Shown piece after piece: positions 50,196-58,230 of a DNA stretch of 64,000 nt. Below the pieces are notes generated by a model, which saw only the letters and a list, made by a program, of their open reading frames with translations, made no database searches and was not told the origin of the DNA. The position numbers and the translations under genes are program-made. This DNA comes from Balanoglossus misakiensis (lineage: Eukaryota > Animalia > Hemichordata): positions 17,717,028-17,781,027 of the forward strand of contig CM082576.2 of the NCBI GenBank assembly GCA_040954595.2. The letters run 5' to 3'. Numbering within the stretch: the first letter of the stretch is position 1; each line of letters starts with the position of its first letter.

Positions 50196-51467
50196 ATGGC
50201 AACCTCTACATGTATTGGAAATATATTGGACCCACTAGGTTTGGGACACCTCTCTGATAAATTCACTTATGAGAAAATAACCCCTGCCATGGTATGTAAA
50301 TTATCAGTTGTAGACATGGAGACACTTGGCCTGAACAATAGAGCTGATATGATGGCACTGCGTGTTGCTTGCGTTAAATTTGGAGGAAAAGCACCTGCTA
50401 AAGCATTGGGACTCAATGGTGGTGCTCCTCTGTTTAACATTCCAAAATGTGTGTTGGAGCATCTTCTTGATGAAGAATTTAATATTGCTGATGTCGCATC
50501 AATGTTATCTGTTTCTGAGAGTACCATTTACCGAAGAATGAGACAGTATGGTCTTAGTAAAATGGACTTCTCAGATATAAGTGATGAGGACCTTGATGTC
50601 AATATCAGGCAGCTAACTTCTGATTTTCCATATTGTGGTGAAAACCTGATTAGGCAGATGTTACATGCTAAGGGGATCAAGGTCCAAAGGATGAGGTTGA
50701 GAGACAGCATCCACCGTGTTGATAGCATTGGTGTTGAATCAAGGAAGAAAGGCCGCTTACAGAGGCGTATATATAATGTCCAAGGACCAAACCACTTATG
50801 GCACATCGACACAAACCACAAGCTTGTGAGGTGGCATTTTATAGTATTTGGAGGAATCGATGGTTTCAGTCGCCTACCTGTTACTTTATCGTGTATAGAT
50901 AACAACCAGGCATCTACCCTGTTGCAGCTCTTTATGGCTGGTGTTGAGAAGTACGGCCTACCCAGTCGTGTGAGATCAGACATGGGTTTGGAAAACATAG
51001 ATATAGCGGAGTATATGGTCACAAATAGAGGCCCAAACAGGGGGAGCATGATAACAGGTAAAAGTGTCCATAATCAACGAATTGAAAAGCTTTGGAAGGA
51101 CGTCTATGAAGGAGTGCTAAGTCTGTACTATCAACTATTCCACTTCATGGAGGATAATGGCATCCTTGATCCACTAAATGAATTACACATAGCTGCACTT
51201 CACTATGTATTCATGCCAAGGATCAATGAAAAGCTGGAAACATGGAGGAATGCCTGGTCTCGCCACAGAATGCGCACAACGAAATCATCTCCACATCGAC
51301 TGTGGATTTCTGGGCAGTTTCAGGATCCTGTGGGGATAGAGGAGATTTCTTTGGATGGATATGGTGTTGAAGGCATTGTCTATGGTGATGAGACAGAACA
51401 AGAGGCTGATACAAGACCATCAGCCATCATTTTCAAAGTGCTGCCAAATTCCAGAGGAATTGAATGA
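50196..51467 (+). CDS. IS3/IS481-type DDE transposase with N-terminal SAM-like domain and HTH
   Basis: SAM-like [17 protein letters not shown]....CKLS..DMETLGL...AD...[25 protein letters not shown]; core [41 protein letters not shown]. The C-terminus may be shortened. Confidence 0.9.
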
Positions 51468-51937
51468 CTATGTCAACATGAAAAGTTCGCAAGTTCAAAC
51501 CCATAGTTCATACAATGGGTAAATACACCATCCTGAAAAGAATTTTCTCATGTTTTGACCACATACATTATGTCAGGAAATACAATCTTGAACCAAGTCT
51601 ATCTCTCTGTAAATAAGTAAAACACATTTATGCAGTCCTTTGGTTAAATTTGTTGCACATGTTTAAAGGCCCAGTAACACAAATTTTGGCCATTTAAGTA
51701 CTTTGTATTTGTAAACACAAGGTTGCTATAAAATATAAAAGCAAAACGTACATATATGAGAGATATTCCCAATAAACTATGAAAGTGAGCACTTGCCCAA
51801 GTTTCTGCATACAACGATTGTTTATCTTTCTCTGTGTCAACACAAGTAGCTTCAACAGTACCTCTACGAGTATGGTGAGAACATACATCTATCACTAAGC
51901 CTCCAAGGTTTAGGAGAATTGTGCTTCAATAGCTTAA

Positions 51938-52556
51938 AGGGGAAATCCGTCGTAGCTGATTTCTACATAATTTGGTAGCTTTGATGTCACTCTTTCAGAA
52001 AAAAAACATATTCGCCATGTATAGGTCGCGCGATTTTTTACAAAATCTAGGGAAAGTTGGCAGAATTTCCAATATGGCGTTTACTGTAATTTGAATCATG
52101 GGAAAAAAAGCGCCAGGACCAACTTCCGCCCACCATGGTGTGGGTGATACCATTCTCCGATAGGTGTCACTGGGCGACAGACTAGGCGTATTTTCATAGC
52201 TATTGTTTGTTCTTTGCATCAGTTGATAAACAATCATCAGCAAAGTCGAAAATTTGTCATCTATTGACAGTTTTCATGAGCTATAACCCATGGAAAATAT
52301 GCAAATACGCTTAGCTTGTGACGCAGTGACACCCATCGGAAAATGGTATCACCCACACTAAGGCGGGCGGAAGTTGGTCCTGGCGCTTTTTTCCCATGAT
52401 TCAAATTACAGTAAACGCAATATTGGAAATTCTGCCAACTTTCCCTAGATTTTGTAAAAAATCGCGCGACCTATACATGGCGAATATGTTTTTTTCTGAA
52501 AGAGTGACATCAAAGCTACCAAATTATGTAGAAATCAGCTACGACGGATTTCCCCT
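51938..52556. mobile_element. Kolobok-like foldback MITE with ~220-bp TIRs
   Basis: TTAA TSD; aggggaaatccgtcgtagctgatttctac... near-perfectly inverted at the right end. Confidence 0.85.
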
Positions 52557-56317: not shown

Positions 56318-56652
56318 AGGGGCAGTGAAAAACAGGGAAAACAAAAGGTGATGTGAGTTGAATTTTAGGAAAGAGTGCAAAGCTTAGTGCTCCTGTCACT
56401 TGAAGGCAGAGGACATTTTATGTTGTTCAACTCGCACCACTTTTTGTTTTCCAATTTTCAAACAAAACAGTATGGATAAATGGCAGGGATTACTTCTGCT
56501 GGATAACTGGACCTAAACTATGAAAAACAGCCTCGCCAATCATCCCCTTTAAACCTTTCACCACCATGGTTTGTCCTAAATCCATTTTTCTCTATGGTAA
56601 AGTTGGGCCTGTACATGGGGAAATGGGGGTGAAAGGGTTAAGGCACTGTCCT
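56318..56652. mobile_element. Kolobok-like MITE containing a piggyBac-like mini element (56553-56637)
   Basis: ttaa-aggggcagtg...cactgtcct-ttaa; inner ttaa-acctttcacc...ggtgaaaggg-ttaa. Confidence 0.55.
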
Positions 56653-58230
56653 TTAATTTACTTGCTGTGATCCTGATTTTCATTGGGACAATAATTCTCA
56701 TTGAATATACAAATCCATGTAGGCCTAATATACATGTTTAATGTGTATACTTACATTGCTATCTCCATTTCGAGAGAGATCGACTGTTTCCCCAGTGCTA
56801 GGCTGTAATATTTCCAGGTCATCATCTGGCGTCTCAGCAGAGTTTGCTTGCGCTAGTGTTTCTCCACCATGTCTTTCTTGAGTATCTGCTACCAGCTGTG
56901 GTGGGGGTGGGAGGTCATCTTCGGAATCAGAAGTTATCAGCAGTGTACCGGTACAAGTCTCAATGTGTTCACGCAAATCATGCATGGGGAATTCAGTGTT
57001 ACAGCTTTTGCATGTCTCCTTCAAGGCAGACGAGGAACTTCCAGTGCCAGCATTTAAATCTTTGGTGCTAAGATTTTTCTGGATAGGCCTTATGTATAGT
57101 TTAGCCTGGGCACCAACATGACCTTTCAACTCAGGCACATTCCACGCACATTTCAGTTCATTCAGCTCACGGCAGCCACTGCTACAATGCAAAAGTTCGA
57201 ATCCGCCACAGTCTAGCAGCTGGGGATAAGCACTGGTGATTTTGCTTAATACTTGACTTTCGTCGTCCTCTGCAAAAAGGGTGACCTTCTTGTCACCAAG
57301 CCCTGCCCTAAATAGTATCTGTCTCTCGACGGTCGTCGGAAGTTTTTTTGCATACCTGTCTGCTAGACACATAAATCTAACAGTCCACGTTCTCGTGCCT
57401 CGATCCCTCGTGCTGCTTCTCTTTCTCTTTCCTCCCCTCCTTCCGCCACTTCCTCTACTAGGCTGAAAGAGAAGGGTTGTCTCTCTACGAACAGTTGTAG
57501 CACTTGTAGAACTTGTTTGTGCCTGGTTTACAGCAATGTCGCACATTTCACGCAGGTCAAACCGATCACCAACCCTTGTGACCCCTACTCGTTTGAGTTC
57601 ATCATCAGTCATTGCCGCCACTGTTCTTGGCTCAATACGTTCATTTTGAAACACAGGCCACAACGTAGACAACCCGAGTCTGGTTAGAATGTTTTCCATC
57701 ATGGTATAACGCTTTATACACAGTGGCCTGATAAGACTTTCACTCGGCTAGTTATACTTTGCGAAACAACAAAACGGCGAAACAGCGAAACGACGAAACC
57801 ATTATTAAAATAGGGGCCAGTCATCAAGACGGTGGCGTATGATTTTTTTAAAAGTTTTCAAATTAAAACGTAAGCGAGCCAAGAAAACTACAGGTCAGAT
57901 AAATTATTTTCTCGGAAATTCAACATTGGAATCAAATTTGGCGTGGGAAACAAACGGCGGGGCGCCAGTTCCTGGTCTGCGGCCTGGTACTATGTAGTGG
58001 TAGAGTCGACGTCGTGTGCTGACAGGCGAATTGCCCGCCAAAAAAGAATCCCGCCCCAAAAGGTCAATGTACGAGTATATTCACAGGGCGAAAGATTAGT
58101 TGAAACAAAGCAGTAGTGTCCGTACTGATGGGGGGTAAGAGTAGTAGTTATATATAGAAACACATGTAATAACTCACACAACACAGTATCATTTCACTCA
58201 GCACCACGTGTGTCACACGTTCGTGAAGTT

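Follow-up and report, generated by a model that had tools for sequence, protein, structure and literature searches.

The 64,000-nt stretch of Balanoglossus misakiensis DNA analyzed here (the window) contains a degenerate copy of a cut-and-paste transposon of the IS3EU/GingerRoot type, which is widespread in animals. In it, a DDE transposase gene faces a gene for a ligase with a shortened HECT domain, and both proteins begin with related SAM domains. Comparison with other elements supports the view that the ligase belongs to the transposon as a regular component and that the two genes travel together. The pairing of SAM domains is lineage-specific: in most lineages both proteins are without a SAM, and in one lineage only the ligase carries it.

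Structure of the element and its genes

The features identified are as follows.

48676..48681, + strand: left flank GGCTAC, the expected 6-bp target duplication; a Ty3/Gypsy pol remnant (pol domains detected) is split here
48682..48694, + strand: left terminus TATGGAAAGCCAT; contigs start exactly at 48682 with other flanks
48746..49932, + strand: left subterminal array, 21-bp unit, about 57 copies
50196..51467, + strand: IS3EU-type DDE transposase with SAM, HTH, rva_4 core and damaged C-terminal tail (Pfam, alignment, model)
50196..50384, + strand: transposase SAM; mid-loop face kept across the family, end-helix Gly absent
51938..52556, no strand: high-copy inverted-repeat insertion between TTAA duplications, presumably Kolobok-like, judging by its TTAA/AGGGG ends
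53005..53264, - strand: ligase exon 6, HECT C-lobe with catalytic Cys codon (53121-53119) and stop
53946..54121, - strand: ligase exon 5, frameshift near 53975
54436..54572, - strand: ligase exon 4, no intron at the site where about 90 residues of the standard HECT N-lobe are missing
55323..55455, - strand: ligase exon 3, DFGGPRKEFF
55900..56178, - strand: ligase exon 2, helices preceding the HECT and first part of the N-lobe
56755..57702, - strand: ligase exon 1, SAM (57699-57541), basic stretch, ubiquitin-like domain (57396-57070), UBZ-type zinc finger (57024-56923) and acidic linker
58705..58821, - strand: right subterminal array, inverted relative to the left array and broken mid-unit
58822..58835, no strand: palindrome TACGGTAGCCCGTA, which truncates the right repeat array mid-unit

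The element had been described as bounded by TAY..RTA. Its left end, TATGGAAAGCC at 48682, is base-precise according to contigs with other flanks (two in X1 and three in X2), and a further contig is identical over 48450-48681 and then runs on as unbroken Gypsy sequence. TATGGAANGCC has a single exact match in the window, which is the left terminus. A degenerate terminus pattern with two mismatches allowed was found 48 times against 47.9 expected, which is chance level; the call uses the exact match and contig support only. The right boundary did not hold up. The sole candidate, CCGTA ending at 58835, is followed by TGTGAC and was rejected as a proven right end because the GGCTAC repeat is missing there, and the expected right junction was found nowhere in the 64,000-nt window. 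Since this duplication is missing and the array of a second element begins at 58865, the palindrome at 58822-58835 is probably the start or terminus of a second, nested IS3EU element and not the right end, which is probably displaced past position 64000. The TDP-43_N exon of the second element, used as a query, matched one protein. The genes of the first element are present at single depth and their relatives are very distant; among viral contigs, four pattern matches included no relative.

The assignment of the plus-strand gene to the DDE transposases was confirmed by Pfam rva_4 (E 3.6e-78) and by the catalytic residues, of which D205 and D262 occur in all 65 aligned sequences and E297 in 64 of them; the model matches the integrase fold (Z 15.8, rmsd 3.2, 186 aligned). 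Part of the C-terminal tail of the family is gone after residue 408. The minus-strand HECT gene is indeed convergent with it and has six exons, with GT-AG borders at all five introns. Its PTANTC motif (53136-53119) is intact as proposed, but the gene is broken: canonical splicing yields 1930 nt with a stop at codon 562, upstream of the now out-of-frame motif, because of the frameshift in exon 5. With this frameshift and the damaged transposase tail, the copy in the window is dead.

Association and descent of the two genes

A SAM transposase was present in 18 of 80 retrieved loci. Six of the 18, among them all five whose flank exceeds 1.4 kb, have a ligase of the same family downstream on the opposite strand. 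In the scallop Argopecten, SAM transposase and ligase occupy consecutive RefSeq accessions three times; the ligase model includes a SAM in two of these pairs and is 5'-partial in the third. XP_069140000 and XP_069140001 are an intact pair of this kind. Sinanodonta has six ligase copies that cluster together at 90% identity and lie on scaffolds of four different lengths. Seven complete relatives contain both genes, TATGG..CCATA ends and perfect 6-bp duplications, the latter being found in eight related elements (L017, L042, L054, L057, L073, L076, L077 and L060). In 8 of 27 non-SAM loci with at least 3 kb downstream, no downstream ligase match was assignable to the respective element. The evidence for both SAMs in a single element comes from the window and the two accession-adjacent Argopecten pairs, because no SAM-clade metagenome contig reaches the 5' end of the ligase; the sequence of L024 stops short of it.

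Ligase distances rise with transposase distances: rho is 0.71 for 16 non-redundant elements (0 of 5000 permutations) and 0.57 for the seven from the SAM clade (59 of 5000), in line with co-phylogeny; within nine non-SAM elements the correlation was not significant (rho 0.22, 411 of 5000). In a transposase tree built from the sequences gathered in this analysis, the SAM-bearing proteins form one clade (support 1.0) from molluscs and corals/cnidarians. A single origin therefore accounts for them, and co-occurrence is no proof of co-adaptation. No SAM match was obtained in any of the seven complete non-SAM elements, and in the L033 family a spliced SAM precedes a full-size HECT while the transposase next to it has none; a superfamily-wide rule of SAM pairing was rejected on these grounds.

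Kinship and predicted interaction faces of the SAM domains

The similarity of the two N-termini noted in the preliminary description was reproduced by BLASTP (17 of 51 identical, E 9e-8, single pair) and by profile-profile alignment of transposase and ligase SAMs (96.9%, E 1.4e-10, 61 ungapped columns). As had been proposed, predicted models give a SAM fold for each of them. The transposase SAM of the window has five predicted helices (pLDDT ~90) and matches SAM structures with Z 7.0-9.4, tankyrase SAM being the top match (Z 9.4, rmsd 2.2, 61 aligned); the same structure is the top match of the ligase SAM of P0121, an intact relative (Z 9.3, rmsd 2.1, 63 aligned). The Pfam check gave a divided answer, in that the ligase SAM of the window passes SAM_1 (27.2 bits, cut-off 23) and the transposase SAM falls below the cut-off (E 0.14). 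An atlas search with the transposase SAM returned only leads below 0.9, mostly SAM clusters. When the transposase-SAM profile was used, 24 of 41 ligase SAMs (maximum 48.3 bits) outscored the best host SAM of known structure (23.3 bits), a rough comparison as the profiles differ in length. We lean slightly towards the transposase SAM being a duplicate of the SAM of the neighboring ligase gene that displaced an older helical N-terminus; in other clades, the N-terminus in this slot is helical, about 80 residues long and unrelated.

The interaction faces were mapped onto tankyrase SAM (PMC4980433), with the register taken from structural matches. In the transposase SAM, the mid-loop has an entropy of 0.80 compared to 1.69 over the whole domain, and Asp occupies the D1055 position in 63 of 65 sequences. 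The end-helix Gly is found in 2 of 65, and Arg is not among the three commonest residues at R1076. The ligase SAM keeps the end-helix T-I-G-D-R (Gly 34/34, Arg 31/34) and is variable at the D1055 and V1056 positions. Its mid-loop is only partly degenerate, with the equivalents of E897, I899, E911 and I915 retained, and the end-helix face as mapped carries no net positive charge (-0.26). Judged from these alignments, the families keep complementary predicted faces, the mid-loop on the transposase and the end-helix on the ligase, as expected of a one-way heterodimer. Tankyrase SAM, which is the best structural match of both domains and allows the same end-helix/mid-loop register to be mapped, has both faces and polymerizes, whereas each transposon family keeps mainly one, like the dimer-forming single-face mutants described in PMC4980433. 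As to a tankyrase-type polymer SAM with both faces on one domain, the ligase is less clear, its mid-loop being partly kept. A head-to-tail polymer of the transposase SAM appears unlikely because the end-helix Gly is absent, and was rejected.

The complementary conservation lends independent support to the putative SAM-SAM docking. As both SAMs are related and have a predicted matching shape, the ligase likely docks on its own transposase, and we somewhat favor direct binding of the two SAMs. A complex prediction of the two window SAMs stayed below its mark (0.25, mark 0.34) and speaks neither for nor against contact; it was run without alignments, and the key mid-loop Asp is changed in the transposase of the window, which has Ala where 63 of 65 relatives have Asp.

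The short HECT domain and possible functions

Standard HECT domains use a Cys and a C-terminal aromatic residue for transfer to the substrate. Both are kept here, the PTANTC-type Cys in 50 of 50 motif-bearing ligase relatives and Phe or Tyr preceding the terminal Gly in 33 of 34. The model of the P0121 ligase shows a two-lobed HECT fold with N-lobe and C-lobe (HUWE1: Z 21.4, rmsd 3.5, 270 aligned), in which 303 residues cover what takes 382 in HUWE1. The spacing between two motifs amounts to 151-168 residues in 48 of 58 measurable relatives and never exceeds 182, compared to 244 in the neighboring element and 250 in AREL1; the motifs flanking the expected small N-lobe subdomain are 20-36 residues apart in 36 of 36 measurable cases. 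No beta-hairpin is seen in the model at the place of this E2-binding subdomain, and from the position and PMC3077247 we infer that it constitutes the roughly 90 missing residues. The transposon HECT is for this reason not a standard ligase domain, and the missing subdomain argues against ordinary charging by E2. Standard HECTs (HUWE1, Rsp5, NEDD4, E6AP; PMC3077247) share the two-lobed fold, the catalytic Cys and the C-terminal aromatic residue, but differ from the transposon protein, which is shorter, without hairpin at the E2-binding subdomain and with a SAM-Ubl-UBZ front end. Sister lineages have the same Ubl-UBZ-HECT layout but a full-size HECT. At E 1e-10, matches to the HECT family comprise 916 clusters (50% identity), some of which are not short; single-sequence searches of solved structures with full-size transposon HECT pieces gave nothing useful.

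For the lineage with both SAMs, the model we prefer, at about even odds, is one in which the end-helix face of the ligase would contact the mid-loop face of the transposase in one direction, and the docked ligase would ubiquitinate the transposase or neighboring proteins at the transpososome. Similarly balanced is the idea that the short HECT remains able to form a thioester with ubiquitin by a non-standard route of charging, in which its own ubiquitin-like domain and UBZ would hold E2~ubiquitin or a ubiquitinated partner. More tentatively, the main target may be the transposase itself, which could be kept at a limited level or, once strand transfer is over, removed from the DNA to let host repair close the 6-bp gaps. 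The most far-reaching version is rather doubtful: a private addressing system in which the SAM was copied from ligase to transposase, the polymer faces were split as cognate lock and key, and a minimal HECT, active without the standard E2-binding subdomain, ubiquitinates and clears its own transpososome.

A single kept face would suit the capping of a host polymer equally well, and the two SAMs might thus bind host SAM proteins instead of each other, the transposase mid-loop tethering to a chromatin SAM polymer (e.g. of the Polycomb type) and the ligase end-helix recruiting host silencing or defense proteins for ubiquitination. The ligase profile indeed matches the SAMs of BICC1, ANKS6 and tankyrase (E 1.8e-9 to 3.6e-8), and in the L033 family the ligase SAM has a job of its own, since it is present there without a transposase SAM. 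We nevertheless consider this reading unlikely, as the faces kept within one element are exactly complementary, the two transposon SAMs are closely related, and host SAM targets would not be the same in molluscs and in cnidarians, both of which the clade includes.

Two further readings appear less probable still, to nearly the same degree. The loss of about 90 residues throughout the family and a UBZ finger that would supply a grip on ubiquitin could mean that the short HECT is no longer an E2-charged ligase and docks on the transposase as a ubiquitin trap, as a thioester acceptor from host E3s or as an eraser, shielding the transposase from host ubiquitination; the retention of both Cys and C-terminal aromatic residue and the full-size HECT in sister lineages of the same layout speak against this. 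The transposase SAM might also be a structural by-product of domain shuffling within the element, a packing or self-association module without ligase contact. This would agree with the unrelated N-terminus in the same slot of other clades and with the invariant helix 5 residues M53, L55, R56 and C59, which may pack on the transposase, but it leaves unexplained why the acidic mid-loop is the best-kept part and why the ligase keeps the matching face.

The element resembles IS3EU/GingerRoot in its integrase-like DDE transposase with N-terminal HTH region, in its left terminus, which fits the TA..TA ends that relatives have on both sides, and, in relatives, in the 6-bp duplications. It differs in that the GingerRoot cargo described consists of captured host gene fragments whereas here the partner gene is conserved; the main text of both accounts (PMC10045372, PMC6839031) contains neither "HECT" nor "ubiquitin", and SAM domains are not mentioned in the available passages. 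Fungal IS3EU elements with alpha-kinase and TET/JBP genes (PMC12730594) share the TAYGG..CCRTA ends, the 6-bp duplications and a second enzyme gene opposite to the transposase, but their partner is a kinase (plus TET/JBP) instead of a HECT protein, and the available text describes no shared N-terminal domain.

A second protein that binds or remodels the transposase is also found in Harbinger elements, with their Myb-like protein, and in phage Mu, where MuA is cleared by ClpX; in contrast, the partner here is an element-encoded enzyme of the ubiquitin system with a shared docking fold. In agreement with the preliminary description, which knew of no account of such paired-SAM self-control, we found no paper on it and no earlier account of paired SAMs or of a short transposon HECT among the search results listed, as judged by title or abstract; the HECT gene may already be recorded in Repbase reports, in subscription journals or in supplements.

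Our results suggest that some multi-copy bivalve genes annotated as "HECT-type E3" belong to transposons. A large natural HECT family that keeps its Cys without the E2-binding part would mean either that HECTs can be charged by a novel route or that the fold has acquired another use. The shutdown and disassembly of eukaryotic transpososomes are poorly known, and the element provides a testable two-protein case with named interface residues.

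Gene content and boundaries of the first element

The window is animal DNA with abundant transposon remains. An IS3EU/GingerRoot-type transposon (first element) carries a transposase gene and a convergent HECT gene (ligase), and a second IS3EU-type element lies to its right:

50196-51467, + strand: transposase, 423 residues (Pfam rva_4, E 3.6e-78, plus HTH)
57702 to 53005, - strand: ligase gene, six exons, GT-AG introns, converging on the transposase
58822-64000+: second element, reversed IS3EU-type, probably nested in the first
58865-59282: 42-bp subterminal array of the second element
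59403 onward: HECT gene of the second element with N-terminal TDP-43_N (Pfam E 2.3e-18)
63450-64000, - strand: transposase remnant of the second element, frameshifted, convergent with its HECT gene

The transposase was confirmed as a DDE enzyme by its rva_4 match and the presence of the triad; its conserved C-terminal tail is partly missing. A contig of the sole sample covering this stretch diverges from the window at 51419, the site of the tail damage, and another version of the stretch therefore exists. A homologue search yielded 2559 relatives at E 1e-20 from 5504 candidates. The best 120 of these are 53-65% identical to the window transposase, have an N-terminal SAM in 116 cases and, where a source is named, come from bivalves and a coral. 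For the ligase, the six-exon convergent gene of the preliminary description was recovered; the catalytic motif is intact, but the gene is not, as an exon-5 frameshift leads, under canonical splicing, to a stop at codon 562, upstream of that motif. The window copy of the first element is dead. In the intact bivalve relatives P0121-P0123, the ligase comprises, in order, a SAM, a basic stretch, a ubiquitin-like domain, a UBZ-type finger (Pfam E 0.002, below cut-off), an acidic linker and HECT. The predicted model of the ubiquitin-like domain matches the TBK1 ULD (Z 8.0, rmsd 2.3, 80 aligned). A diverged second version of the SAM exon (57388-57699; 41 differences) was seen in sequencing runs X1 and X2, so that a sister family is present in the same organism.

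The left end is base-exact, as contigs with different flanks start at 48682, and a Gypsy contig that is not interrupted parts from the window at 48681. Its sequence, TATGGAAAGCC, is similar to the termini of complete relatives, TATGGAACGCC..GGCGTTCCATA, and to the fungal IS3EU ends given as TAYGG..CCRTA in PMC12730594. This end of the proposed TAY..RTA-bounded element held; no right end was established in the window, where the left flank GGCTAC was not found a second time on the right side. On that side the 21-bp array is short, and a palindrome (58822-58835) breaks it mid-unit; 30 bases past the palindrome the 42-bp array starts. The arrays, the palindrome and the absent GGCTAC repeat suggest a second element nested within the first. 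In contigs matching the window, coverage of both genes is at the base level (~83-86 in X1) and that of the arms is much higher; although depth is not equal to copy number, this suggests that many non-autonomous copies exist.

Other insertions were also observed. Short inverted-repeat insertions with terminal TTAA lie at 51938-52556, 56318-56548, 56553-56637, 44938-45190 and 46189-46536, of which 56553-56637 has a very high copy number and loose ends at both borders. A Ty3/Gypsy-like gag-pol frame of 1757 uninterrupted codons (25274-30547, - strand), with an apparent chromodomain at its end, is surrounded by many broken retroelement frames.

SAM domains and linkage of the two genes

Models and profile alignments upheld the earlier view that both N-termini are SAM domains related to each other. 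The transposase profile aligns with the tankyrase SAM without gaps through the end of helix 4, stopping before the end-helix, and the ligase profile spans the whole tankyrase-type domain. In a midpoint-rooted tree, with sampling skewed toward matches of the window-derived profile, SAM transposases form a single clade (support 1.0) within which two 5'-truncated contigs nest. In transposases outside this clade the N-terminus is helical and ~80 residues long, and a SAM match was absent from all seven complete elements with such transposases. In non-SAM metagenome loci (L014-L078), this N-terminus is amphipathic, lies upstream of a GRP/HTH motif and may be an older ligase docking site. SAM pairing is lineage-specific. 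At L033, L034, L038 and L058, a two-exon SAM sits on a full-size HECT (L033:17499-19058) beside a transposase without SAM. Because this family has the SAM on the ligase only, the ligase SAM is the more widespread of the two, which suggests that the transposase SAM was acquired from the neighbouring ligase gene.

The metagenome scan gave at least 497 confirmed relatives, and 18 of the 80 loci kept encode a SAM transposase. The window-type ligase family was found downstream on the opposite strand in 6 of these 18, the remaining 12 being too short to reach it, and in 5/5 with more than 1.4 kb of flank. A HECT gene occupies the equivalent place in 19 of 27 non-SAM loci with at least 3 kb downstream, many of them copies from one assembly. 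Seven complete elements, bounded by terminal repeats and perfect 6-bp duplications, contain both genes. In Argopecten, transposase and ligase proteins have consecutive accessions three times, an indirect sign that the genes are adjacent, and six nearly identical copies of the ligase occur in Sinanodonta. Co-occurrence of the two genes was borne out. Distances of ligase C-lobes and transposases correlated overall (rho 0.71, 0/5000 permutations; 16 non-redundant of 22 elements) and within the SAM clade (rho 0.57, 59/5000; seven elements), but not within the non-SAM set (rho 0.22, 411/5000; nine elements). An internally deleted element (L057:7933-12147) has lost the ligase gene and kept the transposase, intact ends and a 6-bp duplication; it has transposed, presumably with help in trans.

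SAM faces and the short HECT domain

In TNKS2, the end-helix face comprises A919, Y920, G921 and H922 and the mid-loop face E897, Q898, I899, D902, V903, M907, E911 and I915; tankyrase SAMs connect end-helix to mid-loop, and domains with one face each give dimers, according to PMC4980433. We mapped both families by structural register on this domain. In the transposase family the mid-loop is conserved (entropy 0.80 vs 1.69 for the whole domain; D in 63/65; I/L/V at the V903 position) and the end-helix is not (Gly in 2/65, with Met or Ile in place of the Arg). In the ligase family the core of the end-helix is conserved (T in 29, I in 27, G in 34, D in 26 and R in 31 of 34 sequences), and the D902 and V903 equivalents vary. 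The alignments are of unequal depth, and the ligase SAM too keeps some mid-loop residues. Tankyrase carries both faces on one domain; here they appear mainly divided between two proteins, as would be expected for a ligase-to-transposase heterodimer, although a host SAM could be the partner instead.

The catalytic Cys is present in all 50 motif-bearing relatives (169 proteins examined) and the C-terminal aromatic residue in 33/34 family members. The stretch from the N-lobe GGP motif to the C-lobe is nevertheless ~90 residues short in this family. This spacing is 159 residues in the window ligase, 244 in the second element and 250 in AREL1; it is 151-168 in 48 of 58 measurable relatives, shorter in eight, and 176 and 182 in two. 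A missed exon was ruled out, since the gap is internal to exon 4. The P0121-derived model (mean pLDDT 88) matches HECT domains with 303 residues vs 382 in HUWE1, and a hairpin is absent from the shortened stretch. PMC3077247 describes the small HECT subdomain as the host of the E2 site, with one other statement there putting E2 binding on the large subdomain. Full-size HECT is kept in lineages with non-SAM transposases.

Possible role of the ligase

In the reading that we consider most likely, the ligase docks on the transposase as a working enzyme, for which we see an even chance. It would be addressed through the SAM pair, charged with the aid of its own ubiquitin-like and UBZ domains, and would ubiquitinate the transposase or nearby proteins, thereby limiting or dismantling the transpososome; that these are the substrates we hold with less confidence than the docking. 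There are precedents in UHRF1, whose ubiquitin-like domain recruits an E2, and in MuA/ClpX, for transposase clearance after strand transfer. Host SAM proteins as the partners would also be compatible with the conserved faces; we regard this alternative as less likely. That the protein, with its shortened HECT and retained Cys, is a ubiquitin trap or shield appears improbable, and it is slightly harder still to view the transposase SAM, with its kept mid-loop, as a structural by-product.

The IS3EU superfamily and a convergent second gene in it are already known from PMC10045372, PMC6839031 and PMC12730594. HECT was not found in the accessible part of 10.1101/2021.09.26.461848, and a literature search, with Repbase and supplements outside its scope, turned up no publication that describes HECT or SAM domains for IS3EU-type elements. 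The paired SAMs with complementary faces and the short HECT appear to be new for such elements.

The HECT of the second element is full-size, with an internal stop at 61582-61584, and one relative of its TDP-43_N gene was found, in Ptychodera. The N-domain of TDP-43 is a head-to-tail oligomer module too. By analogy, the first slot of the ligase may hold differing docking folds.
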